Origin: Antedon mediterranea
Lineage: Eukaryota > Animalia > Echinodermata
Assembly: GCF_964355755.1 (NCBI RefSeq)
Contig: NC_092672.1
Location: forward strand, 2,356,001 to 2,420,000
Length of the DNA: 64,000 bases
Direction of reading: 5' to 3'
Shown here: positions 119 through 63,700 of the stretch, in pieces
How positions within the stretch are numbered: position 1 is the stretch's first letter
Layout of the letters: every line of letters starts with the position of its first letter
Position numbers and translations under genes: made by a program
The notes under the pieces: generated by a model
Told to the model about the DNA's origin: nothing
Seen by the model: only the letters and a program-made list of their open reading frames with translations
Database searches by the model: none

Positions 119-239
119 ATGGGTTAAATTTCTTATTAAAACTTGTATAAGTTAAATAAAATTAGATTGAAATATACAAAATGATATGCTTATGACAACA
201 ACATGGTGATTAACACAAAATGTTGACCATCAGGAGGTC

Positions 240-5038: not shown

Positions 5039-6060
5039 AATAATAATTTATTTGGAGTTTACACTTTTACAACAGTGGCACTCAACCAAGTGAAAGGTGC
5101 ATCCATAAGAAATATACACAAAAAAATTATGATATAGTAAATAACAAAAGTCGACGTAGGTCAACATGTCAAAACAATTCAACTACAGTAACTACAATAC
5201 CATTGATATTAATCACTACAGCAGCAGGAAAGCCACTGACACCTAAGAATACAAAACTACAAGAACTAAACAATAATAGAATAGGTAAGGAACTGTACAA
5301 TATAAAATGAATTGGGCAACAACAATGTAGACCTAACACTATAATGAGATAGATATCAATCATTTAGTTTGATTGATATGAACATTACTCACCTAGAACA
5401 ATACATCTGTGTGCCCATGCTCTTTTAACATAGTGCTTAAAGTAACGATCAAAGACATTTGATATGGAATCGACGTCAAACATGTTATAATAGTAGTTAT
5501 CAGTTCCACCTAATACAAGATTTAACTTGCTTTTCAGGTCACCAAAGATCAAATCTTCCAAAACATCTAAATGACATCGATTAACATATATTCTAATTTG
5601 GTATTATTCGTCAATCCTTATGTCATTGAGTTGGTTACATGTGAATAGAAAATGTTGAATGTCTTCTAAACCATTCTTACACATTGTACAGATACCATCA
5701 TAATCAGGAAGCCACTTACAACTCCTGTGACCTAAAGGAAGGGTGTTAGAACGTAGCTTGAATTTGAGGCTAGATCCTAGAAAATCTGTACAATCCAATG
5801 GATAATTTTCAAGGCACGGATTAGACGTAATAAGAGAGTATGTCTGGAGTGACGACTTTCTTTGCATTTCACTTTTCCAAAATGCAATGTTTGTGTCATG
5901 CATCACCTCTTTAAATCTCTTAACCCAATGACTATCAGGGTCATTGTCAAGGTAGGAAGTTTCGAAAATCAAATCGATGTCCATATTAATAGACGTACAC
6001 GTCTTAGCAAAACTGGGGATCAGTTTATAGCGTTTGTAGTTGAACTTAGACACGTATTAA

Positions 6061-11704: not shown

Positions 11705-14700
11705 ATGGCGACAGGTAATAAACATAAATGGTGTTTTTGTATTGCATTGAGAAGAACAATTTTAAAATGTTTTTTCTAATCTTCTCTTTTTCCCACTTTT
11801 TAATTTTTTTAGAAATAGATTTTAATGTGGACTTAGTGAACTTTTCAGAATGGTATGATAAAAACAACCTCGTAAGACAGCTAAAGGTTTTATACCACGA
11901 TTTAATTTCAGTAGCAGACATAGACAAAGCCAACACAACGATAGATCTACTGGATGCATTGAGGAAAACAGGACGTTTAAGCCGAGGCAATCTGGAGTTA
12001 CTTTATGAAACGATAAAAATAACACAAACGTTTGGAGCTATCAAAGTTTTTCAACAATCTTTCTTCGAAGTTCAAGAAATACAAATTATTAATTTCACCC
12101 CATATCGACACTGGATTGCAGATTTTGGAAACGAACTACGAAAGGCTGCTGTTAAGAAAATTGATGCACTCTTCAACAATCCTTTAAAGAATTATGAAGA
12201 CTCGTGGAGTATGATTATAGACTTGGAACAAAGACAAATACTTTGTGAAGAAAGAAAAGAAGGGTTTATTAACATTCTTAACAGAATTGGACTGGCATCA
12301 ACGATGAAATGCCTGGCACAAGGTATGTAACAGGAACGTGTTAGCAAACAAATAATTAATTGGAGAAGATTATAAAAATAGCCTATAATATGTGTAAAAC
12401 ATTCACTACGTAACAATTATTGTATATTTGTATTTTTTCTTGTTTGTTATTTAACAGAGGAAGTGCCGAGAAGTAGTAGTAGTGACACAAGAATGCAAAC
12501 AGAGGAAGGTAACTATAGTTATACTGTTATGTAGGACATTAGAGTCAAAATGATTTTATTGGTGAAATCAAACTAGAGAAATTAGTAATAGATTGATAAA
12601 TTAAATGAAATAAAATTAGTGATTTGAAATGTAATTATGGAAAGCGAAATAAACCCAAAATAATTCAATTTACCAATTCATTTTTTAAACTCAAACCATA
12701 ATGTTGTGCAGTTCAACAAAATCTCAATTCACTTTTAACATCCGGTGACGTCCTAGGCAACAAAAGGTAAATTAAATGTTAAGAAGGCAAACTACGCATA
12801 CAATAACCCTTCTTCTATTCCTTATGTTATAATAATGTTTTATCATCAGTATTCTTTAAAGTTAAAACAATATGCATACCTGTAAGGAAATACAGGTATC
12901 TCACTTATGTGATTGGTGAATACGGCCACTGGGGCTTATTTCATCCTATTTCGGATTTGTGATAAATTTATTTTTCGATTTGCTGCCCTCTGTTGGTCAT
13001 GTTTTTAAAAATTATGCTTCTCTTCTTATCTGATTTATCCGTGGATTTATCAAAATTTGTGTTTGTCAACCTAAATTTACAAATACGTTACGGTACAAGA
13101 TAAGGAGTGAGCCTCCGTATATCAGAAAATAGTCTGGTATAACTAATAATAATTACTTGACTTACTTTAACTGAGTACAGTAATAGCAAATTATTATTAC
13201 ATTCTAATTCCCATACAATTATCTAGGCCTGCAAAAAGAACAAACAACTAATTAATAACATTTTTAAAACTGCTTTATATAAAAGATAAATTAAGATCAA
13301 CAGTTTAATAATTTAAAAATACATGTATTATAAAATATTATTATGTATACATTTCTGAACCTCTTTTTTTACATTTAGAAAAGATTGAAGAATATCTGCT
13401 GCTAACACAAAAGGAAAACTGCAGGCAGGCCAGGATATTTACACCAGAAACAATGCGTGGTAGATACACAGTTGACATTTCACAGATGTTTACCGATATG
13501 GAACTACTGAAAGAACGTGAAAACAATAAAGGAAGCAAACCAACAACATTGGAAGAAGTGGTAGATGTTATACAATCCACACCTGGATGTAAAGCCCTCA
13601 TAGAAGGGGAGGGAGGTATTGGAAAAACTACCATATTAAGGCATTTATCGTACAACTGGTCTGATCAATCAATTGAATTATTTGAAGGTAAAATTGTGTT
13701 TCTTTTAAGTTTAAGAGATTTAAAAAAAGATGACGACATATCTGATCTGATTGTACAGCAACTGACAGATTTCAATTTAGACACAGATCTCCCAGAAGAT
13801 CCACAGTTAATTAAGGAATTTATAAATAAACATGACAATAACTTTGTGTTACTACTAGATGGATTAGATGAATTAAGAATTGATAATCAAAGCGTAATTA
13901 GTCTTTTCAGAAAAAAAAGGTTTAAACAAAGTACTGTAATACTTACTTCAAGACCGGAAAACATAGATGAATTTATAAAAGAGTGTAACGTACACATAAG
14001 AGTTAGTGGATTCAACAAAGAGAGCATTGGAAAGTATATTGAAAAATACTTTAAGCATTTTGAAAATCAACAATTGGGAGAATCCCTTAAAGAAGAGTTG
14101 GATATTGACACTCTTTTGCCTGGGGAAAAACATCCAGAAGCATATTCAATGTGCAAAAATCCAATGCTACTTCTTTCGATCTGTATGCTATGGGAAGATA
14201 ATCAAAGTCTTCCTAGTGATAATACTGATCTTTTCAAAGAATTATTTCGTAGTATTTTAAATCAATTTAACAAACAAAAACAATGTGACAAAATTTTAAA
14301 ATTTGAAGACACCCCATCAAAATATGTACACGCTATGATTTTGTTAGGCAAATGTATGTATATAAACTTAAAACGAAATCAACTTTCAATAAAAATAACA
14401 GATTTGAATGATACACATTCCACAAGAGATATGATTGACATGGCCCTAAAACTTGGATTTGTTTACGAAGAAGCACCACTTTCAAAATCTAATTGTGAAA
14501 GAATATTTATGCCTCCTCACAAATTGATTGTAGAATCATTGGTGGGATTTTACATGTCTAAATTATTTGAAAGTGAAAATATAAAGGATGACTCAGACGT
14601 GAGACAATTACTTATACCATTGGGTTATAATGAATTGGATGTAATAAAAAGCGAGTATTTCAAAGTTGCGAGAAAGTTTGCACTTGGTTTCCTTGATGCT

Positions 14701-15477
14701 GCAACAGCTGGTTATTATTTAAAGCAATGGCTCACAAAACATTTCCCATTAAGAATGAGTAGTAGAATTCGGAAGTTTTTTTTCGGCATTAAGATTACAT
14801 ATAAGGAAAGATTTATTGCGAACATTTTAGACATTCAACATGACTCTTATGGACGTGTTGGTGTTAGGATTTGCAATCTATCAGCTGACGTCATCAATCA
14901 CTTGGGTACAGAATGTTCTCTCAAACAAGTTCAATTAGCATTACGTACTATCGATATCTTTGGTAATAACTTTCACAACATTGATGTTAATTCATTGTCT
15001 TCATTACTCATTATGTGTCCTAAGCTGACGACGCTTTACATGATGAATTGCAATCTATCAGCTGATGTCATCAATCACTTGGGTACAGACTGTTCTCTCA
15101 AACAAGTTCAATTAGCATTAGAACATCTCGATATCTCTTTTAATAACCTTCACAACATTGATGTTAATTCATTGTCTTCATTACTCATTATGTGTCCTAA
15201 GCTGAGGTACCTTGACATGAGGGATTGCAATCTATCAGGTGACGTCATCAATCACTTTGTTACAGAATGTTCTCTCAAACAAGTTCAATTAGCATTACGT
15301 CATCTCATTATCTCTGATAATAACCTTCACAACCTTGATGTTAATTCATTGTCTTCATTACTCATTATGTGTCCTAAGCTGACGTTGCTTGGCATGAGAG
15401 ATTGCAATCTATCAGGTGAAGTAATCAATAACTTGACCGAAGAGTGTTCAAACAGAGGCATCATGTTTTTAAAATAA
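11705..15477 (+). CDS. NLR copy A: tandem DED-NACHT-LRR protein (~887 aa); exons 11705-11714, 11819-12322, 12458-12508, 13379-15477
   Basis: All introns GT-AG, phase 1, frame open. NACHT motifs: Walker A GEGGIGKTT, Walker B LLLDGLDE, ILTSRP, CKNPMLL, FMPPHKLIVE. C-terminal ribonuclease-inhibitor-like LRRs. Exon 2 resembles two death-effector domains. An alternative acceptor exists at 11813. Confidence 0.9.
14872..15420 (+). repeat. 177-bp (59 aa, two LRRs) coding tandem repeat, 3 full units plus a partial
   Basis: TGCAATCTATCAG recurs at 14872, 15049, 15226 and 15403. Confidence 0.95.
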
Positions 15478-31960: not shown

Positions 31961-33614
31961 GCAATTAAACATTTTTGGCAGATTTTCTTCTATAACAGCT
32001 ACAGTGTGTAAAAAAAATAGACAACGCAATGTGGCGTACGATCGTTTTCTATTTTTTTTTCTTAAATAATTCAGTAAAATTATCTGTTTGTTTACAGCAA
32101 TTAAACATTTTTGGTAGATGTTTCCTCAATAACAGCTACGTGTTTTTGCTGACGAGGGATTCCCTTTTAAAAAAATACGCATTCTATAATATTCTACAAA
32201 TAAATGACCCACACTCGTTTTTCCATGGCAACGGATGTCGTCTTATTTACTAAAATAATATAAACGTTCTGAAGGCCTACCTACACGTGTCTGTGTACAT
32301 ACGTATCTGTCAGCGATAAGATGATTTTTTTTTAGTTTTATTTAGTAGTATTTTATTTCGGTTTTTAGTCATAATAATACAGTAATAATCATTATAAAAT
32401 GAAAACGTAATAACAGCAAATGTCGTCGTTTGTAATTAAATGTTAAATTATTGGAGGTTACCTTTTATTATTATTCTCACATCCATCATGTCCTAGGGAA
32501 TTTGTTTTAAAAACGGCAATAATCTACTTAGATTCATTATTCTAAAATGGTCCTTAGCAGCAAAAATGAGGCTGGTATCCACTTAAATAGTTTCGTGATT
32601 TTAAAATACGAGTGACTACTTAAAAATGTATTAAATATTTTCGAAATGTTAAAACAAAACTTGCAAAACAAAACAACAAAAACCATCTTTAAAACGACTT
32701 TCAAAAAGCACATTACTTCATTATCTGTAAAATAAAATGAAAAGTGTGTACAGGCTATTCGTAGTAAATAATAGATCAATAACTATTCATAAATGAAAAA
32801 AAATAGAATGCAGCACAGCCGACCACTGACATATCTTCCATGTAAAACAGCGCCCTCAAGTATTAATTTAACTACGACCCAAATACGATGAAATAGAGCT
32901 GTGCTTTTTTCGTACGAGTCTGTACATAAATTATACTTAGGTAAATAGTTTTTGCCATTATAATATCGAACATATGATCTAAAAATGTAATAAAACTGGG
33001 TTTAACTGTAATAGGCCTAGGGCCTATATAAATAGGCCTACGCCGTGGTTAGGATTCCGGCACCGGAACTCAACTGCCCACCGTTAGGGAATCCGACACG
33101 CTATTGCGCATGCTCAGAGCTCTGGGAAGTGAATAAGGCCAAAAAAAAAAAATAGTTTGTTTGCTGTCATCCGCCGCCCCTAATTTCGCCAAAAATTTGG
33201 GGCGGAAATAGAAAAAGTTTTTTTTTACGTTGAGGGCACTTTTGAAAAAAAAGTTTTTTTTAATGATTTTTTTTGGCCGAAAAGGTGTAAAAATCGAGTG
33301 TGCGAGAATGAAACAATAAAAATAATAACGTAGCGTATATTTCGGTGTATAATCGCACTTTTGACACGCAAATTTAACCTCTAAATTAAGGGTGCGTCTT
33401 ATACACCGAACATAAATGCCTCAACACACAGATATCGCCACCTCGTTGGCTAGGCCTGGGCTTTTTAAAGGTAAGGCCTAGGCCTATTAGTATACTAAGT
33501 CTAAAGAGTAGGCCTAGCCTAGCTACAGTGTACTAGCGTAACAGCAAACTGCTAGTTTTCAAGGCATTTTAGCGTGATTTTGTACTAAATATGATGAAAA
33601 GATTTGTTCATTAT

Positions 33615-33735
33615 TGTAGTGTATTGACCACATACATCATACTGTAAATAGTGTTGCCGCCCTCTGTTGTTCATTAAAGCAATCTCTCTCTATAAAATGG
33701 ATACCGAGCCTGAGTCATGTGTATGATACATCACA
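33615..33735 (+). repeat. 5' LTR (121 bp)
   Basis: Identical to 44853-44973. Confidence 0.95.
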
Positions 33736-35683
33736 ATTGGCGACGAGAATATAACGGAAAGCGCGTCAATAAGAAGATTAATCTGTGAGTAAGAATATTC
33801 AATAGTTAATATTCTACAATCTGCTAAGATGAGTACTATAATTGGTAGACTCGATCCGTATGACGGCGAGGCAGAGGACTGGGCCTCCTATGTGGAAAGG
33901 TTAGAGGCATATTTCATGGCAAACGGCGTGGATGACGACAAGCGTGTACCTACGTTACTCAGCTTGATAGGGCCTAAGACTTACGGTCTTCTGAAGAACT
34001 TAGTAGCACCTGATTTACCATCAACCAAAACATTTCCGGAACTTGTGGATTCGTTGGAAAGGCATCTGAGTCCTAAACCTCTAGTTATAGCTGAAAGATT
34101 CAGGTTTCACAAACGTGAGCAGCATGAAGGTGAAACAATCCAGGCCTATTTAGCGGATTTACGACGCCTCACCAAACACTGTGAATTTGGAGCACAGCTA
34201 AATGACGCCCTGCGGGATCGTCTTGTTTGCGGAATTAGGTCAGGCAGTATACAAAAAAGACTGTTGGCTGAGGCAAAGCTTACATTAGCGAAAGCGCTAC
34301 AAATGGCAGTTGCTATGGAAACTGCAACGAAGGATGCTTCGCTACTACAACAACAGTTTAAAGAAGAACCACAGAGTACTGTGAACAAGATAAACGTGAA
34401 ACACTATAATAAGCAGCAATTATGTTATCGCTGCAACAAGGGTGGTCATAAGGCAAACGACTGCCGGTACAAAGAAGTTGAGTGCCATAACTGTAAAAAG
34501 AAGGGACATATCAAGGCTGCATGCCGGAGTAAATCAAAACAAACACCACACCAAACTAAGAAGGGTAAGCGAGTGAATGTTGTTGATGAAGAAGAAGACA
34601 ACCTTCTAGCTATGGTGTATGTTAATAATGTAGACGTTGGGAAATCAGTGAAGATAAAACCAACGATAGATAATATCCCATTGGACATGATAGTGGATAC
34701 TGGCAGTGCACTCTCGTTGATTTCGATAGAAGATTTTGAGAAATATTTTAGGAATACAGACTTGTTGCCGACCAAAGTTCAACTTAGAACTTATACTGGA
34801 GAAGAAGTAAAGACAAAAGGGTATTTGAAGGCCAAAGTAGAATACAACGGACAGAAACACGATGGAAAACTATATGTAGTAGAAAGAGGTGGACCCCCGT
34901 TGTTTGGTCGTCAGTGGTTGACACATATCAAGTTAGACTGGGCCAGCATCTTCACAGTGAAGGCTGACCACAACAAAGCTGATGTACCAGCAATACTGAA
35001 TAAATTTCCAAAACTCTTTAACAAAATTGGAAAGGTGAATGGGGTAAAAGGTAAACTTACCTTACAGGATGGAGCACAACCAGTTTTTATTAAGGCAAGG
35101 AATGTACCATATGCACTTCGACCTGCAGTTGAAGCCGAATTAAGGAACCTCGAGAGTCAGGGAATCACCACCCCGATTCAAACTAGTGATTGGGCAACCC
35201 CAATAGTGCCTGTACCAAAAAGTAATGGAGATGTCAGGTTGTGTGGAGACTACAAAGTTACAGTAAATCCAAAGTTAAAAGTGGACTGCTACCCTCTTCC
35301 AAGAATCGAGGATGTTTTCGCAACCTTAGCGGGTGGACAGAAGTTCACAAAACTAGATTTGAAACAAGCATATTTACATTTAGAGATGGAAGAAGAATCC
35401 AGAAACATGCTGACCATAAATACACACAAAGGGCTATTCCAGTTTAATCGACTAGCGTATGGCATTGCATCTGCTCCTGCCATATGGCAGCGGACCATGG
35501 AACAAATCCTGAATGGTATTCCGGGAGTCCAGTGTCTACTTGACGACATGATTATTACTGGCACTACTCATGAAGAACATTTAAGGAATCTAGAAAAAGT
35601 ATTAAAGGTTCTCAGTGATAGAGGACTGTGCCTCAATGACAAGAAGTGTGAATTCTTCAAAGAAAAGGTCGTTTTTTGTGGTC

Positions 35684-35713
35684 CACGGCAGTTTCCAGCG
35701 AGACAAAAAGTGG
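35684..35713 (+). repeat. Left end: RSS-like CACGGCA-12 bp-ACAAAAAGT
   Basis: Read directly: CACGGCA GTTTCCAGCGAG ACAAAAAGT GG. Confidence 0.85.
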
Positions 35714-36914
35714 TGAGCCCTCTATAGTTTCGATGCTCGCTTTTTCTTATTTTATGTTATAGAGGGCGCTAGTTTAAATACCCGGAAGACTATTTTTAAT
35801 ACCCTGGTAAAAGAGAGGGATTAACCTGCCAATAGACAGTGTTATAATTGAAAATTTAATGAATATTCATGTTATATTCGAAGAAGAAGGCGTGTAATTG
35901 ATATTCGAAGCCAGCGGTCACTCCGTTTCTCAAGACTTCACGAGATATGAGTATTGAAATCTTACGTCTATTTTGCGACAAAAAACAGTAAAAAATAGCA
36001 GTTTAATTACAGGGTAATGGTGAGGTTATATATTTTTTTTGCAATTTACATAAACATCGGCGCCTAGTCGATGTGAAAATTCAAAAACTTGATAAACAAT
36101 ATTTAAAAAATCTCGCTGACGTCTAATCCAGTTTAATAATTATATACACAGAAAGTCGGGGCCCATTTGCCTGTTTTGCACACGTGGGTGTGCTGCTAAA
36201 GGCCTAGGCCTAACAAAGGTTTGTCACCTAGTACTAGGTTTAAGCCACGAAAAATAAATACTGTATAGGCCTAGGCCTAGAATAATATACTCTTAGTAGG
36301 CCTAGCCCAAGTATATGTCGTTAAGAGGGGAAATCAGCAGGGCCAGGCTTAGTAACAGCTCTATCTAGCTAGGCTAGGCCTAATTTTTTAATATGGTACC
36401 ATCAAGACATAGGTAGGCCTAGGAGGATAGGTATACTTACTAACTAGCTTTCATGAGGGCCTAAGTTATTCTACAGTAGAAAATGTGAAAATATCATAGT
36501 CTATCTTCCTATGGCTTGAATATTACTAAACTATGGCAGCAACAGCATTGCATTTGTAGAATAAAAAATAAAATTTTGATTTTAATTTTGACAGTATAGT
36601 CCTAATAATAATATAATATTTCATCATGTACTTCAATCGCTAGTCCACCATTTTTTTAAATAATGATGATAAATATTTATAATTCAAAAATTGTACTACA
36701 GGTTCCAAAAATACCACCAACACAAACAAGTACGACTACTTTATTGATGCAAGTGTGGTTCATAAGAGAATCCATAATAAAGAAGAAGATGGCACTCCGT
36801 CAGATTTATCAGTAAGCCTATATTTTCTTTTATTTCGTATTCATTGTCGTGTACTTTATTCTTCTTTTTCTGAAAAATATAAACAGGTTTATTTAATTTT
36901 TGGTGAGCAGGGAG

Positions 36915-39900
36915 CTAAAAAGCACAAATAGTGTAATCAATAAAGTGTAAATTGTTACCAATTTTTCTTCTTTTGGGTTCAACTATTTCTTCTATTATGC
37001 ATGGCTGAGTGGTAATTGCATGTGACCGCATCATGGATGTTAACTGTCCAAGTCTGTCATGCATCCCAGCAACTGTTCTTTTCCTTTTATTAAGCGCGGC
37101 GTGAATAGACTCCCCACCTTGCTCGCTAACCAGTCCCAGACCAAATCTCCAAGCCTTTAATTGGGGAATGACATGTTCCTCGAGCATATGTAATTTTGGA
37201 GATATACTTTTGTTGGTTTTTCGATATTCCTCCATAAAGTCTTTTATGGCTTCATCTGAATTTTTTTTGTAGAAGAGAAAAGAAACAGTTGCAGTGTATT
37301 GTAGGAAAAAAAAACAATGGCATGTCTAAGGAATACCTTGAAAGGTAAGCATAATTACATTACCATTTCCTTGAATATCAACATCTGTGACAGGTTTTGA
37401 ATGATTCAAGTTGTTGTGAACCCTAGAAAATTTTGAAAGGAGTGCATCGTACTTGGTGACCAATTCTTTTACTCTTTTGTCAATTAGCTGAATTTTTCCG
37501 ATAGGAATCTCAGCTTCTTGAATTTTCATTTCATGTAGTGGAGCATTCACTAGTTCATTCCTAACATGGTCCTATTAAAAACAAATATACATTTTAAAAA
37601 CTACAATTTTAATAATTAACAGTTGAAACAATATCAATTAAAAGAATAGTTAATTTACCTGGCAACATTTATGAACATGGTTACCAATAAATGATTTACC
37701 ATGATAGGCTTGCCGTTGGATGCGATTTTTTTGTAGCACACGCTCCAGTGATGTGACAATTGGACCCGTTCCAAATGGAAGCCCATTTTCCATGCATTTT
37801 GTCTGTAAAATAAAATATAATACAAGTTTTGGCTTTAGAGTATGTGTCTGGCAAGACGCATCTATGTCATTTATTGTTTGAGTAACTTACCAGTGACTCA
37901 ATCTCTTCTCTCAATTTGACTATCTTTCCCACATTGGTAATGATGCTACCATCAACACTTCCTTTAAGATAGATTAATGGCATTGCATCCTCCATCTCAG
38001 TCAACTTTAATTTCTTTTCTTCAATCTTTTCTTTGATATCAATTTGTGTTTGGATCTGATGTTGAATTATTTTATCAAACTTTGATTCAGAAGTGTCATC
38101 AAGTTCTCCATTTTTCCTTAGGGAATATATGAGGCAATCTATGCTGTGCGCCTCCGTCTCAAGCATATCAAAGAGCTTCTTGAATATGCCCAATGACAAG
38201 TGCAGGCTAGGAACAGACACCTAAAAGATATAAATTTTAATACCAACAGTGCCATATAATGAAGTAAGTACATTTGTTTCTCTAATATAAAGATAATTAA
38301 AAACAAAACTGATGTACTTACATGATCTACCTCAATTGATACTAAGGGATTATTAACAACGCTCATGGAAACATCCTTAGATCGGCTTTCAATTCCGCCA
38401 TCTTCCATAAACATTCTATAGTTGGCTCTGATTGAAGCCAATGATCGCTGTTTGGCGGGTGGTGCCTTTAATTGCATTTCTGCTTTTGGTTTTTCACAAA
38501 AGAGACAGCAGTATCGAGCTAAAAGTATTCAAATTTTTTCACAATGTTTAAAAATGCTAAAATATGCAGTAATACAGTATAAATAAAATTGGCTTAGAAA
38601 GATTTTGTATAAATTAAATGATGATAAAATAATTTAATAGTTTACCATTTGGTCCATTTAATCCATAGAGTTTTGTTAGATACTCATAGTCCCCAAAACA
38701 GAAAACTCTCAGTGTGTAATTGCTGAAAGAAATTATACATATATTTTTATTTTATTACTTCTATACGCATCCACATAATTGTTAAGTTGATATACTAGTT
38801 GTATTCTTACCGCCATTTTTCCCCGTTCAAAGCAACAACTTGGTGGGCCACTTCCGGAAGAGTCCGGTTAATATTAAACATCATGTCAGGGGCATCAAAT
38901 ATTAGTACGACGATGATGTTGTTAATTGAATTTGGTTTGGCGAGGCTACATATCTGTACCTCAAATTTGGTACTTCCACCTCCCTTATCCCCGCCAAACT
39001 TTATCCAAACCTCGTTATTATTGGGAGATAGGTTGTTCAGTCTGTAAAAAAATTTAGTAAATATTAATTCAGTTTTTAATTAATTTCTTTTAACTTTTAT
39101 TTCCATAGCAAATCCATAGGAACAAAAGTAAAGTCCTAAAAAGTAAGTTCTACACTTTGTAAGCACATATTAAAATTTAACTTCAGCGTACCTTGAGTGT
39201 TCATCAAGATATGAAAATACAACTTTTTTAATGTTTTTCAGTTTGACAGTAGGCGTTGATCTTAATTCTATCCCGTCTGGGGACGTCTCAGACCTAAAAC
39301 ATAGCATTTCCATTGTGGATTCAAAATAATCCCCAATGAGATCATTTTGCCGCTGCCGCATCCTTTTCTCTGATGGTATTGTCCCCTTCTCCACATATCT
39401 AGTACATAAAAAGGATTAATAATGTAGTCTCGCTTTATTACTAGACATACTTGACTGTGTCTAAAATGCCTGTATTCATGCATGGTTTTATTTAATCACA
39501 TAATTGTTTGTTTACCTTCTTAGCTTTCGTAGCTGGTTCCATGCCAGATGGCAGTCTGACACCATTGCCAGAGCCTTATCTGTATCTATAGACGAAGTTG
39601 ATGCTATGTTGGCTGCTTTTAAGACCGCTTGACTCGTATGTTTGGCTGAGTACACTTTTTGATGGAAATCACCAGCCTCACTATTGCCAACTGATTTTAT
39701 GATGCTGCTGATGCTATTTGCTCGTCTTGAAACAGTTCGAGAACTGGCCTTATCACTTGAGACTTTGGTGTTTGGTATGATAGCAATCTTTGCTGGCTGT
39801 AGATAAGAATTGTATTTGTATGTTTTATGCTAACAATTCTGTTATAATAATATTAATCTACTTTTTATAACATGCAATATGATAATTACAGAATTTGTTT

Positions 39901-40740
39901 TAAAGCACTCACCCGACCATTTGTTGCAATCAGCATTTCCTTACTTTTCTTTAGTTGATTGTAAACAACTTTTTCTGCAAACGTTTGTATTGTTTGGGAG
40001 ACATGACTATCTTCTAGTGATTTCTCTAACACTGATACAGCTTTTGAAACATTATGATAAACCACTTCTTTAGTTGTCTGGTGTTCACAAATATGTCTCT
40101 GATGTTGAGAGTATTTTATGAACTTATTGCACGAGCATTGTAATTCTAGTGATTTTAGAGACTCTATTACAATTTGGGAGGCGGGTTTAAATTCCAGCAT
40201 GTGCATTGGCTTTGCGCACACAAGACATGAACATACGTTAACATGGAGGGTACTAAACAAATTATACATACAACTAGAACAATAGTGATGTGAACAGTTT
40301 GACTCAAGACTGTTGAAAGACAAAATCGAGTTGCATATTTGGCAAATGAAAGGTTCAGAATTGATTTTGTCATTGACTGTAAATTTTGATGGAATAACGT
40401 CACATTCTGTTTCAGAAAATAATGTGTTGAGTTTTACTTGTTTTAGTCTCTTACCTGGTTTTGACTGTTCTGATAATAAATAACATGTGAAACATGATTG
40501 TTGTGTGTGTTGTCTCCAGATGTACCTTTGAGTTGTGCTAACCTTGTTATAGCTTGAAAATTGACAGTTCTTGCAAATGAATGGTGGATGTACATCTTTG
40601 TTTTCATGGGTTAAATCGATATTTAAAAATGTCAGGACGCTATCTTTTACTTTAGTTAGGTCAAATTTTCGCTGATTTCGTGTTAACTTGACACCACATA
40701 CACGACATAAATTACTCAATGCATATGTATGGTACTCCAT
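36915..40740 (-). CDS. RAG1-like (Chapaev-type) DDE transposase, ~947 aa; exons 40740-39913, 39796-39516, 39398-39192, 39041-38811, 38722-38646, 38518-38322, 38220-37891, 37802-37659, 37571-37364, 37255-36915
   Basis: Nine GT-AG introns with compatible phases and no internal stop. N-terminal H..LCRVCG..HP..C..C..W..H..C..C domain, C3HC4 RING, C2H2-like finger, NGR|P motif; core WIKFGGDKGGG, FGDYEYL..GL..YCCLFC, SLHLSLG, FIGNH, KLHMLEEHV..GLVSEQGGES, colinear with RAG1 core motifs. A short alternative last exon at 36869-36856 is possible. Confidence 0.9.
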
Positions 40741-41362
40741 TTCACAAGACAATAAATAACAGTAACATACCACATACAGTCAATGCAAAACCAATACACA
40801 ATTCTTTAAAAAATATATAATTAACTTTGCCCTAGGCCTATTTTTACCTATAAAATCACTGGAATTTTGAACAGAAATAAGTCAATTTCAAATTTAGCTC
40901 AAATCAATTTGAAAGTAGACGTCAGCCTGAATTTTGAGCTAAATAAAGAATAAAGTCTCCGCTTTCACTTGGAATTAACGGTGTTGCTCGAAAAAATTGC
41001 AGAGATTTGCTATCAGACGATCAAAAGCTTGAACTTACCGCGACGATAAACTTTCGCCGTGAGGGCGCTATTTATGTATATTTTCAGCTTTTGAAACTAT
41101 CGCAAACATCGTTAAAATTTCGCTTTTTTAATAATATTTTTTAATCCTAGACAATTTTCCCTAATACAAAATACAATAATAAAGCAAACACTGTAAGATT
41201 CGAGGAAAACTTTATTAATTTGTCATTGTAAGACTGTATTTACTTCGTATGATACACTCTCTGTTTATAGCTAGCTAATGTAAACATTTCGCTCGATGTT
41301 GGTGGGCTATAAATAGCTGCTCAAGGCTCGCGCCAGGCGTATCAATCAAAAGCGCGTTGTAA

Positions 41363-41401
41363 ACACTTTGTGTCTCGGATATCGCGTTTGAAACTGCCGT
41401 G
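41363..41401 (-). repeat. Right end: RSS-like CACGGCA-21 bp-ACACAAAGT
   Basis: Reverse complement reads CACGGCA GTTTCAAACGCGATATCCGAG ACACAAAGT GT. Confidence 0.85.
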
Positions 41402-42071
41402 GGTCATGTGATAGATAAAAATGGATTACATAAAACTGAGGACAAGATTGAAGCTGTTAGAAATGCTCCCAAACCTACAACCGTAAGTGAACTCAGATCA
41501 TTCTTGGGATTGATCAACTATTACCATCGATTCCTGAAAGACTTAGCTACAGAAATTCATCCGTTGAATAAACTGTTAGAGAAAAAGGAAAAATGGACAT
41601 GGACAAAGGATTGCGAGATGGCGTTTAATAAAGCCAAACAACTTGTGACTGCAAATAATGTGTTAACACATTATGACCCAACATTGCCTGTTAAGCTAGC
41701 TACAGATGCTTCTCCATATTGTCACACAACATTGATGGAGTCGAACGACCAATCGCCTATGCATCGAGGACCTTGAGCGCAGCGGAGAAGAATTACTCTC
41801 ACATTGATAAGGAAGCTCTTGGCATAGTATGGGGAGTAAAGAAATTTACCAGTTACTTGATTGGTCGAAAGTTCACCTTAGTTACAGACAATAAACCACT
41901 TACGTACATCTTCAATACATCGAGGGCTATTCCTGCCACAGCAGCTGCAAGATTAACTCGCCAGGCAATTTACTTGTCAGGATTCAATTACGAGATTGAA
42001 TACAAGAAAGGTGAAAACCACAAAAATGTAGATGGACTTTCATGACTACCATTAGCAAATACTGAAGCTAA

Positions 42072-43322
42072 GGCCAAATAAAAAAATATACTTGTTAAGC
42101 GTCACACCCTCATAAATTTTCAGGGGCGGGGGGACGGTTTTTTTTTTTTTTTTACTTTTTATAGAGGTATATTTTTGCGCGGTGGACGTTTTGCCCCACT
42201 TTTTTAGGACGAAACGTCAAACTTTTAAAATGCGAAACAGAACAAAATTGACTATGTATGAAATATTATTGCTTATGACAAAATTGAGTTTTGTATTGTT
42301 TATATCCAGACGTAATTAAAACATTAAATTTAATTGCCACCAAGCGAAATTGTAGGCCCTAGGCTAACTAATCCGTCCAAGGTGCTACCCCAACCTCACT
42401 CATCGGCCATCTGCCGTCTCTCGCTCGACTCATCTATCCAGGAAATTCCCTATCGCGAGAAGCATGATTTGGTGGTCTCAATAATACTAAATAGTGGGCT
42501 GATTTATAGTTTGAAAACAGCTTACGGCATTTCTTAAGTGAATTTTTATTCAACGTATTCATTCTTCTTTGATGAATCCTTTGCCAATTGCTGTGTAAAT
42601 CAGTATTTAAAGTTGTGATGCAAAAAGTGTATGCAATTATTCCAGGCAGGTAAACCAGGCATAAGGAAACCCATCGCCCAACAGGACCTCGTGGTGTGCC
42701 GATCTCGAGATCATCGTAAACAAAATTGGTAGAGTCCATTATGTATGGGGTGTTTCCTATTTACGAACCTATAAAAAAACGCGCTTCGACCACTGTGTAG
42801 GCAAAATATTTATTTCGTTAAATCCCTAAATTGATAATCGCGTATTCTGTAATCACGTGACTGATGATGTAATCCTCAGCGACGTACTAAATGCACATGA
42901 TTTAATGTGTTGGGGAAAAAGCTTGCTGTTTACCACATTACATGATTCACGGTGCTATTCGCGTTTCCTTTACGTAAATCGGCGGCGTGTAAATGAAACA
43001 ATTGTTTTCACCAATTTGCCGTTGTCGACATAGAGCGATCGGCGGCTAGCGTTGTCTAAGCTAAAAAGTATGTATTTTTTCAAAAATTACACTAGCCTAA
43101 CAAACATTTGCTAGTTTTGAAATTTTCAAATAGCAATTATGAAGAATCTACTAGCAAAATGCTAGTTTGCTAGCGTGAATTTCGAGCCCTACTCTGGAGC
43201 TGGGTCGGGCCGCTGAACTTTCCGTTGTATATCGGTAAAAAAAAAATAAAAATAAAAAGAGAGGCGGCTGGATAATCAGGAGCGGGCGGTGACGCTTAAC
43301 AAGTATGTTTTTTTATTTGGCC
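42072..43322. mobile_element. GGCC-terminal MITE with TAA TSD (Zator or PIF/Harbinger type) inserted in Gypsy pol
   Basis: 34-bp TIR GGCCAAATAAAAAAA..TACTTGTTAAGCGTCAC; TAA at 42069-42071 and 43323-43325; removal restores the pol frame. Confidence 0.9.
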
Positions 43323-44852
43323 TAATGCTGAGGATCCGGTTGAGGTGTTTCACACTATGCAGTTTCAACCACTTCCTGTAACAAGTGCCCAGGTCAAGAT
43401 TGAGACATTACACAACCCAACAATGTCAAAGGTGTATGATTACACAATGAAGGGTTGGCCTAAGAGCTGTGATCCGGAATTTGAACCATTCCATAGACGA
43501 CGTGATGAACTGTCAATTTTTGATGGATGTTTGCTATGGGGTACGCGAATCATTGTTCCACCAAAATTCAGAGCAAGAGTACTTGACGAGTTACATGAAG
43601 GACATTTGGGCATTGTAAAAATGAAGTCCTTGGCAAGGAGCTATGTTTGGTGGCCGAGAGTGGATGCTGACATAGAGAAATTAGCAAAAACCTGTAGTGG
43701 ATGCCAAAAGACACTGCATGAACCTCAGAAAGCACCCCTACATCCATGGCAGTGGCCGAGCAGTCCGTGGGAACGTATCCACATCGACTATGCGGGACCA
43801 ATAAACAACATAATGTATCTGGTAGTTGTGGATGCACAATCCAAGTGGCCTGAGGTATTGCCTACGACCACAGCGACATCAAGCAAATCAATAACTCTGT
43901 TGCGCGATTTATTTGCGAGGTATGGACTACCAAAGCAGTTGGTATCGGACAATGGTCCGCAATTTGTGTCAGAAGAATTTGAAATGTTTCTCAAGAATAA
44001 TGGTATTAGACACATCAAATCAGCACCATACCACCCAGCAACCAATGGGTTAGCAGAACGTTTTGTGCAATCATTTAAAGGAGCACTCAAATCGGCAAAA
44101 GAAGGAAACGACACAAAACAAAAACTTGCAAACTTTCTATTAGCATATAGAAATGGCCAACACAACACAACTGGAATATCTCCAGCAATGATGTTTATTG
44201 GAAGACAACTACGCACCAGACTAGATTGCATTATACCTGACTTACGTCAAAAAGTTGAAAATAACCAGGAAAGCCAGAGAAAACCAACTAGCGAAAAGAA
44301 GCTTAGAGAATTCAAAGAAGGAGACAAAGTGTGTGTTCGTGACTATAGATCAAAGAGTCAGAAGTGGATAGTCGGAATTATTCATAGGAAAACTGGAAAG
44401 TTGTCATATGAAGTCAAAGTTGGACCAGACATGATTTGGAAAAGACACATTGATCAAATCTTAAGCAGTGGCTTAACACTAGATCTAGAGACACCTCCAG
44501 ATATAGATCCTGTTGATTTAGAACCAGCTATCTCAGCAACACCAACACCACCACCGGAAATACAACAACCAGTTGAGATTCCACAACAACCACCACCAAG
44601 GAGATACCCACAGAGGAACAGGAAACCACCTAACAGACTTGATTTATAATGGACCTTTAGACATAACTCAATACAGTTAACAATAATCATAATGATAACA
44701 ATATAAATAATGAGACTACGGACACTTGAGATTGAAACACTTTATTATCAGAACAGTTTTAAAAAAATAAATAAATAAATCTTATAACGAGCAATATACC
44801 TTAAAGCTTGCTATTTAAAATGTTATTGCCATTGAATCTAAAGGGGAAGAAT

Positions 44853-44973
44853 TGTAGTGTATTGACCACATACATCATACTGTAAATAGTGTTGCCGCCC
44901 TCTGTTGTTCATTAAAGCAATCTCTCTCTATAAAATGGATACCGAGCCTGAGTCATGTGTATGATACATCACA
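44853..44973 (+). repeat. 3' LTR (121 bp)
   Basis: Identical to 33615-33735. Confidence 0.95.
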
Positions 44974-45301
44974 ATTATGGAGCTGTTTTAGGCGCTCCGA
45001 TAAAATTTCATTTGAAAACGTTTACGATTGCAATAGTATTATAGTTTTTATACGCACGACCGTCGTACCCCCAGCGCGAGCGAGCCCTTCTTGGCAACCA
45101 CATTGTGTACACAGTATTCGATTAGTATATTCTCCAGTTGATTATAGCATAGACCTAGCGTACACACTTCTAGGAAACATAGATACTAATCGAATACGAT
45201 TGTCCGTGAAAACGTGCGCCTCTCGATAAAAGGATCGAGCGAGGCTAGCCCACACACACGTGCGGTTATGCACTCGATGTTGCGGGTGCGAAACTCATTC
45301 A

Positions 45302-46138
45302 TAAAGAATATATATCACAAGAATGAGTAATCCGCGATTTTCCCTGTAACAGTAATATTGTCCATGTGGTAGGGCGCCGCCATAAGTGTGGATGTATCTG
45401 GGATGTATACAACTTTTTGTGACGGTTTCACTAATCAAAGGCTGGACCACCGGTAGTATTTTCATGATAAAAAATGTTATCAACTACATGCCAACATCAT
45501 GTTAAATACTTTTTGGATATTTAATTGTTCGTTTTATGCAATTTATTTAGTAAAAACTGCCGTATAAACAGTTTGCTTTATCAACCGGGCGCTACGATAG
45601 CGTGACCGGGCGTGTTGTTGTTTACGCGTTTTCACGTAGGATAGTTTAATAATATTCCTATATTTAACCTGTTTCTGGTAAAACAAATAAATGTTAATGA
45701 CATTTAAACTTTTGTCCTATTAATAACATGTATTTTATACTAATTTATATCATAAAAACAATACTTAATTTACCGGGCGTAGAGTAGTACAAGGCAATGG
45801 TAAAGAATAGGCCGTGCTGAGTAACGATTTGTTGATTTTTGGTGTTGCTGTGTTAGGCCTTTTTTGTGAACTAACTTAGCATGTTAGTAAATAATTGTCT
45901 GTAAAAGTGAATGTACACTAGTTTGTTAATAAATATGTATTATAAAATAGTTTACAATTGCAAAATATATTATCATAATTCTATTTAATGTGACATGTAT
46001 AATATCTATTAAATCAAGTCTTATTTAGTATGTATACATCCGCCCTTATGAGGGCGGGCATCACTCTCTTGAGCTCTCTGTTACAAATTTCTCATGCAAA
46101 AATTGCGGAATACTCATTCTTGTGATATATATTCTTTG
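45302..46138. mobile_element. MITE with ~38-bp TIR (possibly P-superfamily)
   Basis: AAAGAATATATATCACAAGAATGAGTA.TCCGC inverted at 46101-46138; no TSD resolved. Confidence 0.65.
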
Positions 46139-50780: not shown

Positions 50781-53700
50781 TTGTAATAATTTCTTTCTTT
50801 TTAAAATAAAATATAGATTTTGATGTGGACTTAGTGAACTTTTCAGAATGGTATGATAAAAACAACCTCGTCAGACAGCTGAAGGTTTTATACCACGATT
50901 TAATTTCAGTAGCAGACATAGACAAAGCCAACACAACGATAGATCTTCTGAATGCATTGAGGAAAACAGGACGTTTAAGCCCAGGCAATCTGGAGTTACT
51001 TTATGAAACGATAAAAGTAACCCAAACGTTTGGAGCTATCAAAGTTTTCCAACAATCTATCTTTGAAGTTCAAGAAATACAAATTATAAATTTCACCCCA
51101 TATCGACACTGGATTGCAGATTTTGGAAACGAACTACGAAAGGCTGCTGTTAAGAAAATTGATGCACTCTTCAACAATCCTTTAAAGAATTATGAAGACT
51201 CTTGGAGTATGATTATAGACTTGGAACAAAGACAAATACTTTGTGGAGAAAGAAAAGAAGAGTTTATTAACAAGCTTAACAAAATTGGACTGGCATCAAC
51301 GATGAAATGCCTGACACAAGGTATGTAACAGGAACGAATTAGCAAACAAATCATTAGTTGGAGAAGATGTGAAAACTCGCAGGGCATACTACAAATAATT
51401 ACGAGGAAAACCCAATCTAAAAAAATAATTACAACAATCAATCAATTGTTTGTTCGCCACTTATCATTGGCTGAATATGTAGCAAAACTTGTTTGGGCAT
51501 TATTTGAATTTGGACTCCAATAAAATGGTTTAGGTTTTTTTCATTTCAGTACAGAAATTTAAGTTTTCTTCTTCAGTGATAAGTGATAGATTTGAAATTG
51601 TGTTTGTCGCCCTCTATATGCAAGTGCGTTGCTAAAAGGGAATTTTGTGAAAACGTCCTTAATTGCAGTATAAACTTGACTACTTAAATGGGAATATTTC
51701 TACAATGAAAACTGTATTTCTTTATATTCGAATTGTAGTTTTATACTATGAAATTTATAATTATTCTGAACTATTATTCTAAACTATTTATCTATTCTTA
51801 TTTATCATTAAACAGTAAATGTACCTAACACAAGTAAAACAGAACAAGGAACGCAAAAAGAGTTTAAATCAGAAACAGGTTCGTTATTAAAATGTAATGT
51901 ATACATTTTCACCCAAAAGAAGTTTATTATGCGGTAGAATAATTGTTGTAAATTCAGTTTAATTCTAATTACAATAATTATAAGGTCGGTTTGATAACAA
52001 TATTATGACACTTATTATTTATTTCTTTATAAAACAGGAGATGTGTCGACTAATAGTAACAAAGAACAAGAAACGCAGAATAAGGTTGAGTCAGAAACAG
52101 GTTAGTTATTAGAATGTATCTATAATTTTTCTCCCATAAAGACGCTTTTAGGTAGAATATTTATCGTTGTAAATTCTGATTTATTAAGTAAAGTCATAAA
52201 CAAGCATGAAACATGTAATTATAATTAGGATTAGTATGATATATAATTAGAATATAGAATATATATTCCAACAATCATATTCCAACAATTTAATTGTCCT
52301 CAGTACAGTCCGGTATGAACAATTAATTCTTTTATTACAGCAAAATTAAGAAATTTGCAACTAAAAATGAAACTTACATTGTTATCGTTTTCTTGACTGA
52401 GTTAGTTTGATTTCTACATCTACAATATTTGATTTGTGATAAATTCATTTTTCGGTTTGCTGCCCTCTCTTGAGCATATTTCCATTTTTTTGTTTCTGAC
52501 GATAGAAAGAAAATGTGTTGGTCGCCCTCTATAAACCCAATAATTTACAAAAAAAATACGATACAAATATTTATACGACAGAGTTTGGTATAACTGATAA
52601 CAATCTTTAATAACTTTAGAATTTTATTTTTTACTTACTTAAATTTATATGTTAGAATATTATTATGTGTTATGATATGGATTCTGAAATAAAAGTGAAT
52701 TGAATTGAATTTAGGTAAATCATTTCAAATTGCTATAGCCTAATAACAAATTTCAATTTCATTTACCTATAATGACATTATCTAGGCCTGTAAAATAAAC
52801 AACCAAATCACTATAATTGTTAACAACTTAGGCCTTACTAAAATAAACTAAATATAAATAGATAAAATTAATATCAACAACAATAATAATATATATAATG
52901 CTTAATAGAATATGATTAATTATAAGATTCATTCTATTAAATAACTTTCTTTCTTTTTAGAAAAGATAGAAACATATCTGATTCAAATACAAAAGGACAA
53001 GTGCAGCCAGGCCAGTACATTTACACCTGCAATAATGAATGATAGATACAAAGTTGACATTTCACAGATGTTTACCGATATGGAATTACTAACGGAAAGT
53101 GAAAACAATAAAGAAACCAGCAAACCAACAACATTGGAAGAAGTGATTGATGTTATCAGTTCTAAACCTGGATGTAGAGCTCTCATAGAAGGGGAAGGGG
53201 GTATTGGAAAAACTACTATATTAAGACATTTATCATACACATGGGCTACTAATGGGCCTAATCAATATACTAATGGGCCTAATCAATCTAATAATGTCTT
53301 TAAAGGTAAAATTGTATTTCTTTTATATCTAAGAGATTTGGAAAAAGATGCCGATATCTTCGATTTAATTATAAAGCAACTGGACATGACAGATTTCAAT
53401 GTAAAGACAGATCTCCCAAACGATTCACGGTTGATTAGAAAATTTATAAAGAAACATGACACTAAAGTTGTGTTGCTACTAGACGGATTAGATGAATTAA
53501 GAGTTAATAATCAAATCGTTATTAGTCTTTTCAGAAAAGACAACTTTAAAAACAGTACTGTGATACTTACATCACGACCAGAAAACATAGATAAATGTAT
53601 AAAAGAGTGTAATGTACATGTAAGAGTTAAGGGATTTAATAAGAAGAGCATAGGTAAGTATATTGACAAACATTTTACGTATTTTGGAAGACCAGCATTG

Positions 53701-54939
53701 GGAGAATCCCTTAGAATCGAATTGGATATTGACACTTATCCTGTTGGGCGAAAACATCCTGAAGCATATTCAATGTGCAAAAACCCAATGCTACTTCTTA
53801 CAATCTGTATGCTATGGGAGGATAATCAAAATCTTCCTAGTGATAATACAGCTCTTTTCAAACAACTATTTCGTAGTATTTTAAATCAGTTTAACAAAAT
53901 AGAAAATTGTCAAAAGATTACTAAATTTGAAAACATTCCAGCGGAATATGTAAATTCTATGATTTTGTTAGGAAAATGTATGTATGCTAACTTGAAAGTA
54001 AATAAACTTTCAATAACTAAACAAGATTTGACTGATAAACATTCGAACACAAATATAGTTGACCTAGCCCTAAAACTTGGATTTGTTTACAAAGAAGCAC
54101 CACTTTCAAAATTTAATTGTGAAAGAATATTTATGCCTCTTCACAAATTGATCGTAGAATCATTGGTGGGATTTTACTTGTCTAAATTATTTGAAAGTGA
54201 AAATATAAAGGATGAATGCTCAGATGTAAGACAATTACTAATACCATTGGGTGATGATGAATTGGATGAAATAAAAAGCGAGTATTTCAATGTTGCCAGA
54301 CATTTTGCACTTGGTTTTCTTGATGCTGCAACTGTTGGTTATTATTTAAAGCAATATATCACAAAACATTTCCCATTAAGAATGAGAAGTAGAATTCGGA
54401 AGTTTTTTTTTGGCATTAAGATTACAGACAAGGAACGATTTATTGCGAACATTTTAGACATTAAACCTTTTGAACCTTATCGATATGTTGGTGTTAGTAT
54501 TCGGAATGTATCACGTGATGTATTTAATAACTTTCTTACAGAATTTTCTCACGAACAAGTTCAATTAGCATTAGAATATCTCGATATCTCTGGCAATAAC
54601 CTTCACAACATTGATGTTAATTCAATGTCTTCATTACTCATTATGTGTCCTAAGCTGAGGTTGCTTGACATGAGTCATTGCAATCTATCAGGTGACGTCA
54701 TCAATCACTTGGGTACAGAATGTTCTCTCAAACAAGTTCAATTGGCATTACGTTCTCTCCGTATCTCTGGTAATAACTTTCACAACATTGATGTTAATTC
54801 ATTGTCTTCATTACTCATTATGTGTCCTAAGCTGGATTGGCTTGACATGAGGCATTGCAGTCTATTAGGTGAAGTAATCAATTACTTGACCGAAGAGTGT
54901 TCAAACAGAGGCATCAATTTTTATACAGTTTATATATAA
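50673..54939 (+). CDS. NLR copy B: tandem DED-NACHT-LRR protein (~872 aa); exons 50673-50682, 50817-51320, 51816-51878, 52038-52100, 52961-54939
   Basis: Phase-1 GT-AG introns, open frame, same NACHT motifs as copy A, one fewer 59-aa LRR unit, two 63-bp linker exons. Confidence 0.9.
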
Positions 54940-60780: not shown

Positions 60781-63700
60781 ATATGGCGTTTCATACGTAA
60801 AATACATAGGCTTGTATTTTCAGACAAAAATAAGGCAAGAGACAAACATAAAAAAGACAATAAATACAGACTTGGGACAAGTCTACCAAAACGTACTTAT
60901 CTCATTATACGATGGCCAAAAAGAAGGGCAGAATGGAATTAATTACAGAATTTCAATGAAGATTAGTTCGTTTGATTCAAAGTAGCCTACAGGTCATTAA
61001 ATATTACGAAAATCAAACAAGTATAGAATCCGACAACAGCAATGTTAACTTGGAATCATGCCAAGCCGTACATCAAATTACTCCGCTTCCCTAATACTTC
61101 TTAGTTTCATTTCATGAAAGGTTTTTAAATTGTTTTAAGATTGTATGTTTCTCTTTCTTTAATTAATAATGTTGCCAGCAATAGCCAAAAATGTAATACA
61201 AGCATTGAAACATATTAATGATTCAATAGAATTTGTTTAAATATTATTACATCTCTAAGTTGGATCACGACCACATTGACGTGCAGTTCCACGGACTTGT
61301 TTGAGAAATTCAACGTAGAATAGTAGAATTATTCATTTACTACTACATTATACTGATATATAGAAATGATAACAATTAGTTCAAAGGATTCTGTATATTA
61401 GTTCTAAGAATAATTTCTGTGAAATTTTTATGGAATATGATAGACTTCCGTGATCGTGTAGACATTGTGCAATAAGGAAGTGCGAGACGGTCATGTTATA
61501 AGCACAGATGAATAATGTTGATCTCAAACGGGAGTGGTGCAGTAGCTGCTGCGACATCATCAACAATTCCCGACATTAAATATACAATCCAGTTTTAAGC
61601 CAATAATTATGTAAGTAGACATTTTTTTAATAATATAAACATCAATCCGGCGACAGCAATCCCAAAACTATTTTATTTTAGCGGGCCTCTGACTAGCTAA
61701 TTTAATTTTAAGAAACTGAGTGTGATATGGCCTGTTCCTCAGTTCCCCGTACTTGTATGCAATGACATGTAATCATAAGAAAGAGCCAGAATTGTCACTC
61801 TAGGCCTACTAAAACAAGACACTAAATAATTAATGTTTCAAATTATATAGTAATGAATTTCATGATTAAAATTTAGCTAACAATGAATTTTCGGGTTTCT
61901 TTCTCTTTTGCTACTTAATTACATTCTTGTTAACATAAGTTTATAATCTTATCAAAAATTAAATAAAATTCATCACGAGCTGAGATAAGTTTATAATCTT
62001 ATCAAAAATTAAATAAAATTCATCACGAGCTAAGATAATACATTAGCTGGGTGTATACATGTAGAGGTCTAAATCAAATGAGAATTCCCATTTTTACAAA
62101 CAACATATCGAAATAAAATTCTCATCGTGACAGTCTTAACACCGAGGTATAAAAATAGATGGTGTAAAGAAACAATATCTAACACTACAAAATGTTTATT
62201 AATACTCTAATATGAGTGGATATATGGATGGCACTCGTGACACAGTCTTAGTTACTACCTAAAAGTCGGTAGGAATATTTTAAGTCAAAAGTCTCACCAT
62301 AAGTGGCACGTTTCATAATCAATTCGTTTTCATCAGACATTCCACATAATGGTAGTTGCTTATGGTATCACTGTGTAGGCCTAAGATTCAACATTTAGTC
62401 CCGCGAAAGATAGTCAATGCATAAAGTCATATGTTCACAAACAGCACCAAAACTTCAAATAAACATCATCGGATCAAACACACCTCCGTTAAGCGCGCAG
62501 ACACTTTACATCGTATGCCCCTTTATCAATAATACCCAGAGAGGGTTATAGAGTTTGGTATCAGAATCATGTAATTTGATGTTCTGTAAAAGTTTTTCTC
62601 GATCCATAATCCCGATATCATACGGTTACCATGATGATTGTGCATCAATGTCAAAAACATGAAATATTTTTATAAAAAAACTGTATTTATGTAGTGATAG
62701 ACATCAGGCCATTCATCTTGAATGTTACATTATTCAGCATATCGTTGTTTTCTAAAGTACAGGAATTGTCCTAAATTCAAAAATTCTATTTTTCAGAAAG
62801 GAAGATAAAAACTGAATTGACAATATGGCGACAGGTAATAAACATAAATGGTGTTTTTGTATTGCATTGAGAAGAACAATTTTAAAATGTTTTTTCTAAT
62901 CTTCTCTTTTTCCCACTTTTTAATTTTTTTAGAAATAGATTTTAATGTGGACTTAGTGAACTTTTCAGAATGGTATGATAAAAACAACCTCGTAAGACAG
63001 CTAAAGGTTTTATACCACGATTTAATTTCAGTAGCAGACATAGACAAAGCCAACACAACGATAGATCTACTGGATGCATTGAGGAAAACAGGACGTTTAA
63101 GCCGAGGCAATCTGGAGTTACTTTATGAAACGATAAAAATAACACAAACGTTTGGAGCTATCAAAGTTTTTCAACAATCTTTCTTCGAAGTTCAAGAAAT
63201 ACAAATTATTAATTTCACCCCATATCGACACTGGATTGCAGATTTTGGAAACGAACTACGAAAGGCTGCTGTTAAGAAAATTGATGCACTCTTCAACAAT
63301 CCTTTAAAGAATTATGAAGACTCGTGGAGTATGATTATAGACTTGGAACAAAGACAAATACTTTGTGAAGAAAGAAAAGAAGGGTTTATTAACATTCTTA
63401 ACAGAATTGGACTGGCATCAACGATGAAATGCCTGGCACAAGGTATGTAACAGGAACGTGTTAGCAAACAAATAATTAATTGGAGAAGATTATAAAAATA
63501 GCCTATAATATGTGTAAAACATTCACTACGTAACAATTATTGTATATTTGTATTTTTTCTTGTTTGTTATTTAACAGAGGAAGTGCCGAGAAGTAGTAGT
63601 AGTGACACAAGAATGCAAACAGAGGAAGGTAACTATAGTTATACTGTTATGTAGGACATTAGAGTCAAAATGATTTTATTGGTGAAATCAAACTAGAGAA

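Follow-up and report, generated by a model that had tools for sequence, protein, structure and literature searches.

Asymmetric two-part ends in a RAG2-free Chapaev transposon of the feather star Antedon mediterranea

Uneven transposon ends that resemble vertebrate immunity's recombination signal sequences (RSSs) are known from Transib, ProtoRAG and RAGL-A, and RAG2-free RSS-like unevenness is known from Transib. Here we describe the ends of a Chapaev DNA transposon of 5,718 bp that occupies positions 35684..41401 (minus strand) of a 64,000-nucleotide stretch of the feather star Antedon mediterranea (NC_092672.1, positions 2,356,001 to 2,420,000; the whole stretch is called the window below). 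RAG2-free, asymmetric Transib ends like RSS12 and RSS23 were published in 2005; in most Transib families both ends are RSS23-like and the pair is symmetric, a 12/23 pair being confined to some of them (PMC1131882). The ends of TransibSU differ by only 2 bp (PMC4411706), and those of ProtoRAG by 4 bp, with activity depending on asymmetric ends (PMC8289069). RAGL-A has a 10-bp end asymmetry, in a report whose available text does not mention Chapaev (bioRxiv 2023.08.20.553239). The origin of RSS asymmetry and its need for RAG2 are debated, with a Transib seed and a RAGL-A origin both proposed (bioRxiv 2023.08.20.553239, PMC8355894).

Chapaev elements are described as having CAC...GTG termini with target-site duplications (TSDs) of 3-4 bp (PMC4079192), and their transposases are defined by C(2)C and H(3-4)H motifs (PMC12730594). 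An N-terminal Chapa domain is typical, accompanied by a RING in two subgroups; RING-bearing members include Chapaev-1/2_BF, -1/2_NV and -4/6/7_HM, and Chapaev as a whole is listed as a clade of the broad Transib superfamily (PMC4411706). In the literature searched, including the available portions of PMC7204232, PMC3014272, PMC12730594, PMC4079192, bioRxiv 2026.08.26.747230 and bioRxiv 2026.01.24.700457 we found no description of two-part, uneven Chapaev ends; the Repbase Chapaev reports, Panchin and Moroz 2008, and Yuan and Wessler 2011 fall outside this scope and may hold one. Uneven ends shared by Chapaev lineages, their short member sitting where RSS12 would, appear to be new and are open to test.

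An intact Chapaev element with uneven ends

The window sequence, or part of it, is present in 11 sequencing runs (5 studies, 4 organism labels), four of which were compared: X1, which is possibly the source sample; X5, taken by guess to be RNA (none of the runs listed is recorded as such); X8; and X9. Contigs from X1, X5 and X8 (three of the four) carry the empty site, with an exact skip of 5722 bases (the element plus 4) at the joint 35679>41402. This fixes the boundaries of the element and its 4-bp TSD, GGTC, at 35680..35683 and 41402..41405 on the plus strand. Alternative flanks begin at the termini in three of the four runs: at 35684 in X5, X8 (3 contigs) and X9, and at 41401 in X8 (2 contigs). 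The element is an intact, multi-copy cut-and-paste transposon.

Each end consists of a 12-bp terminal block, a gap and a 14-bp distal block, the gap being 3 bp on the left and 12 bp on the right. On the left, the terminal block CACGGCAGTTTC lies at 35684..35695 and the distal block at 35699..35712 (plus strand); on the right, the corresponding blocks lie at 41390..41401 and 41364..41377 (minus strand). The long right-hand end is the 5′ end, because the transposase gene is on the minus strand, and the short left-hand end is the 3′ end. The two distal blocks agree at 13/14 positions, a level reached by 1/5000 end shuffles and 10/5000 random window pairs. They contain a conserved core, GAnAnnnAGT, that starts at base 19 from the terminus in the short end and at base 28 in the long end. 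Just inside the short end lies a 10-bp inverted repeat, GCCCTCTATA/TATAGAGGGC (window 35717-35768).

Parsed as RSSs, the ends score 7/9 to the nonamer ACAAAAACC at a spacer of 12 (short end) and 6/9 at a spacer of 21 (long end), with a heptamer score of 4/7 to the RSS heptamer and 3/7 to the Transib CACAATG. The original prediction had proposed these blocks, gaps, positions and RSS scores, and all were recovered. Among background sites, a 7/9 nonamer occurs within 3 positions at 0.8% and a 6/9 nonamer at 5%, so the long-end nonamer alone is unremarkable. In contrast to the spacer of an RSS, the short-end 'spacer' has 9 of its 12 bases in common with the other end, 5 of them beside the heptamer and 4 preceding the nonamer.

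Other copies retain this layout. Among the differences listed, none falls in the terminal blocks of the X1 contigs, which span both ends, and no gap falls in the long end of the main contigs of X5 and X8, which extend to 41401; X9 has the short end on a different flank. A private 9-bp indel in the window copy, which had been named at the outset as a finding that would undo the proposal, is unlikely because these other copies keep both ends. One X8 contig follows the long end for its last 45 bp only (window 41357-41401) and then diverges; it is possibly a sibling or non-autonomous element having just both blocks in common.

The transposase gene (36856..40740, minus strand) has 11 exons encoding 937 aa, or 947 aa with the last intron read through. 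It is supported by its open frame, GT-AG introns, a RefSeq protein and joints in X5, where two of its introns are visible. Exons 1-6 lie at 40740-39913, 39796-39516, 39398-39192, 39041-38811, 38722-38646 and 38518-38322, and exons 7-11 at 38220-37891, 37802-37659, 37571-37364, 37255-36959 and 36869-36856. The A. mediterranea protein XP_071945125.1 is 100% identical over aa 383-933 and supplies the small last exon. Exon 1 (39913..40740) encodes a Chapa/NZD zinc finger, a RING and a C2H2 finger resembling the RAG1 N-terminus; a profile of the family aligns with RAG1 over residues 101-382 (E 6e-26). A search with exon 1 for longer homologues found none. The DDE core (36959..39398) contains Pfam DUF1280 and C(2)C and H(3-4)H motifs, with inferred residues D457, D527 and E883, C546/C549, H614 and H857/H862. 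A phmmer search with the core against RAG1 or Transib structures found no match, and the core profile reached BbRAG1L at E 0.07. No RAG2-like frame was found on the plus strand (longest stop-free frame 82 aa), and no CCGHC tail in the transposase. These negatives, together with the GGTC copies and empty sites, bear out the proposal of a RAG2-free element with a 4-bp TSD.

The plus strand also shows five GT-AG joints in X5, at 36019/36702, 36811/37273, 37344/38122, 38263/39110 and 39142/39524, all with canonical splice sites. They are likely to reflect a spliced antisense RNA spanning the whole transposase gene (window 36019-39524); the longest open reading frame of the spliced form is 95 aa.

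By published criteria (PMC4411706, PMC12730594, PMC4079192), sequence features place the element in Chapaev: CAC...GTG termini with inverted repeats, a 4-bp TSD, an N-terminal Chapa plus RING, and a DDE core that bears C(2)C and H(3-4)H and is far from Transib/RAG1 in sequence. The RING-bearing Chapaev elements and the Aplysia N-RAG-TP are closest, sharing Chapa followed by RING, CAC termini, a 4-bp TSD and a single DDE transposase with both motifs; the two-part end, fixed distal block and one-turn offset differ in lacking a description in the available literature on them. We rejected a RAGL transposon (ProtoRAG, RAGL-A/B), given the absence of a RAG2L gene, of clear RAG1 core sequence similarity and of CCGHC, and a canonical Transib, given the 3/7 score to CACAATG, the 4-bp TSD and the presence of Chapa-RING.

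Each of the better-known systems nonetheless shares part of this design. Transib5, Transib2_AG and N1-N3_AG are also RAG2-free, with CAC termini, a heptamer-spacer-A-rich block and one end about a turn longer, whereas in Transib the heptamer is CACAATG, the TSD is 5 bp and there is neither Chapa nor RING, and the window element has CACGGC, an offset of 9 and a 4-bp TSD. The RAGL-A of Ptychodera flava (heptamer-TR2-asymmetric spacer-nonamer) likewise combines conserved heptamer-adjacent bases, an asymmetry of ∼10 bp and an AT-rich distal block; however, it encodes RAG2L, a GRPR/K in the nonamer-binding domain (NBD) and a CCGHC tail and makes 5-bp TSDs, none of which was found in the window element. 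Vertebrate RAG1/2 shares the N-terminal NZD-RING-C2H2, the core fold and a distal block at the RSS12 position. It differs from the window element, which has a heptamer score of 4/7, a long spacer of 21, a largely conserved spacer and no RAG2.

Recurrence of the end layout in distant relatives

A metagenome scan yielded 30 Chapaev loci. One of them, L011, is a complete element (35-6200) whose terminal block, CACGGCTGTTTC, is followed by a gap of 14 bases at the 5′ end or 4 bases at the 3′ end. Its distal blocks agree at 20/21 positions between ends, with an offset of 10, and none of 2000 shuffles exceeded 17/21. L011 and the window element have ∼31% protein identity and almost no DNA similarity, and they fall on different deep branches. 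The TSD of L011, AGTTG (L011:30-34 and 6201-6205), is 5 bp long in this single insertion, which falls outside the 3-4 bp described for Chapaev and is typical in length of RAG/Transib.

Further ends of this type were found in partial loci. Additional short 3′ ends occur in L013, L021, L022 and the decayed L020; within the L011 clade, the gaps of four 3′ ends are all 4 bp long yet all different in sequence. A short 5′ end, with ACAAAAAGT positioned as in the window element, is present in L026 and in L027, a deleted derivative of it. The core GAnAnnnAGT starts at base 19 in 5/6 non-redundant short ends, against a background of 3e-4 per position, and at base 28 or 29 in both long ends (window, L011). 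A matrix built without the tested lineage chose the expected position in 7/8 ends. The three lineages have ∼30% protein identity; in a quick tree of unnamed relatives (43 rows; <95 aligned residues excluded a locus), whose backbone support is weak, each falls on a deep branch of its own.

Both complete end pairs, those of the window element and L011, are asymmetric, with offsets of 9 and 10 bp and the long end 5′ in each; in RSS register they read 12/21 and 12/22. Sequence comparison across these lineages indicates that asymmetric two-part ends are a feature of the family rather than of one copy, and the recurrence of both distal block and offset had been a check proposed for the original prediction. 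The likeness to RSSs is partial. Set against spacers of 12+/-1 and 23+/-1 the window element falls short, its pair being 12 and 21, with 21 outside the range; in the same register L011 has 12 and 22. The nonamer sequence, in contrast to that of vertebrate RSSs, appears not to be conserved among relatives: matches to ACAAAAACC are 7/9 in the window element, L026 and L027, and 3/9 in L011, L021 and L022.

Ends of this type were seen at 5/15 loci with >500 bp downstream of the gene and at 2/3 with >500 bp upstream. Three further candidates, in L018, L025 and (inside the gene) L010, were dropped, with scores far below those of true ends. The exact end pattern had no match in metagenome contigs, and a looser pattern none in viral contigs. 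A degenerate pattern gave single matches, 49 in prokaryote and 3 in viral contigs, which we attribute to chance; they lacked a transposase or paired ends and spread evenly across gap lengths 4-14. Protein scans of the viral and prokaryote contigs found no relative.

A putative pairing rule and its alternatives

Because a distant relative, L011, repeats the layout with an offset of 10 bases, the short/long asymmetry that underlies the immune 12/23 rule is likely to be older and more widespread than described; the pairing rule itself is putative. The presence of such uneven, two-part ends in a third lineage that is more distant, the short one placed exactly as in RSS12, would push this geometry back to a common ancestor.

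In the mechanism that we propose, the transposase would grip each end twice, its catalytic core on the CACGGC terminal block and a predicted arm, similar to the NBD of RAG1, on the distal block; a transposase dimer would hold both ends. We infer recognition of the distal block by the arm, a 9-10 bp step that leaves this block on one face of the helix, and selection for the pairing of a short with a long end. A one-turn offset would fit a tilted pair of arms as described for RAG (bioRxiv 2023.08.20.553239). The paired complex would then favour a short end together with an end one helical turn longer, without RAG2, a reading to which we assign a probability of about 0.5.

Predicted structures bear on the arm. 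Two full-length homologues were folded, and the models speak for these rather than for the spliced window protein itself. One, P0155, is a paralogue from the same named host, 32% identical to the window protein in the core and 16% in the middle region. Its model (predicted local distance difference test, pLDDT, 84.8) aligns over residues 366-950 with RAG1 459-1007 (Z 24.0, root-mean-square deviation (rmsd) 3.7, 453 residues), and with BbRAG1L at Z 22.6 and HzTransib at Z 21.4; the second model gives the same ranking at lower confidence. In the paralogue model, the core has a RAG1-like fold. The claimed relationship to RAG1 thus holds for the N-terminus and, by this model, for the core fold, while the element belongs to Chapaev and not to RAGL or Transib. 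In 4 of the 19 RAG1 chains that are long enough (by length) for the NBD, the alignment reaches model residues 311-314 versus the NBD start, and Foldseek alignments are ∼70 columns longer against such chains. A predicted helical arm where RAG1 has its NBD is therefore plausible; in the window protein it would correspond to aa ∼284-341 (39602..39775, minus strand). A GRP at aa 275-277 was rejected as the NBD hook, as the fold alignment puts the NBD start near aa 284. A more tentative claim, at less than even odds, is that the transposases of Chapaev have a nonamer-binding arm of the RAG1 type and impose a RAG2-free short-plus-long (12/21-22) rule.

Several observations weigh against the arm and the rule. 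The extension into the NBD appears in 4/19 rows only, at rmsd 10-13, and profile and single-sequence searches with the arm region find no RAG1. The modelled paralogue shares just that 16% identity with the window protein in the arm region, where the window element has no GRPR/K hook. An RPRK hook is present in L011, L016 and L025, but L011 pairs it with a 3/9 nonamer, and L026 has a 7/9 nonamer without a hook; the nonamer match is 7/9 in two lineages but 3/9 in the third. A 9-bp step is ∼51 degrees short of a helical turn. Two complete end pairs are in hand, and no such end is seen at 10/15 loci with >500 bp downstream of the gene. In L026/L027 the short form is at the 5′ end and the 3′ end is off-contig, so that either polarity flips or the family is symmetric. 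Finally, RAG1 without RAG2 has no 12/23 preference, according to a review (PMC8355894).

The strongest alternative is that the distal block is a real transposase site needing helical phase, with short and long forms interchangeable and the asymmetry tolerated and inherited under no pairing rule. The mixture of symmetric and 12/23 families in Transib (PMC1131882) would fit such interchangeability, as would the short 5′ form in the L026 lineage and offsets that vary from 9 to 10 here and are 2 bp in TransibSU and 4 bp in ProtoRAG. Yet the asymmetry amounts to about one turn in both complete pairs, none of the pairs seen was symmetric, and ProtoRAG activity depends on asymmetric ends (PMC8289069). 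We regard this explanation as possible, at rather less than even odds. It is improbable that the distal block is instead a host transcription-factor or promoter site, placed at both ends for sense and antisense transcription. Spliced forms on both strands in X5 would suit such a site, as would a GCGCATGCGC-type palindrome that follows the block (∼bases 30-41) in L011, L021, L026 and L027, that is, in two lineages; but the window element has no palindrome, and the distance from block to terminus is fixed to the base in three lineages while sequence drifts. Least credible by far is that one decayed copy shows a private indel or a pattern due to chance: minority end variants may exist, as the comparison covers the differences listed, but the ends in X1, X5, X8 and X9 and the repeated design in L011 all speak against it.

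If an arm-bearing, RAG2-free transposase did enforce short-plus-long pairing, the 12/23 geometry would be older than the divergence between Chapaev and Transib/RAG, and RAG1 would have in Chapaev a single-subunit sister of full architecture (NZD-RING-C2H2-arm-core) in which to dissect the rule. An intact, spliced, multi-copy single-gene element makes the need for RAG2 in asymmetry selection directly testable. Even without a rule, it would show one-turn offsets persisting in the absence of one.

Genomic surroundings

The GGTC-flanked element sits inside the reverse-transcriptase region of a Gypsy-type long terminal repeat retrotransposon (window 33793-44649), in which a zinc knuckle, protease, reverse transcriptase and RNase H were identified with Pfam and an integrase by eye. 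An Rfam search of 33000-46000 gave no match. Elsewhere in the window, duplicated host genes at 11728-15477, 50810-54939 and 62848-63450 resemble, when judged by eye, NACHT-type NTPases that carry leucine-rich repeats, and lie in segmental duplications of 81-98% identity.

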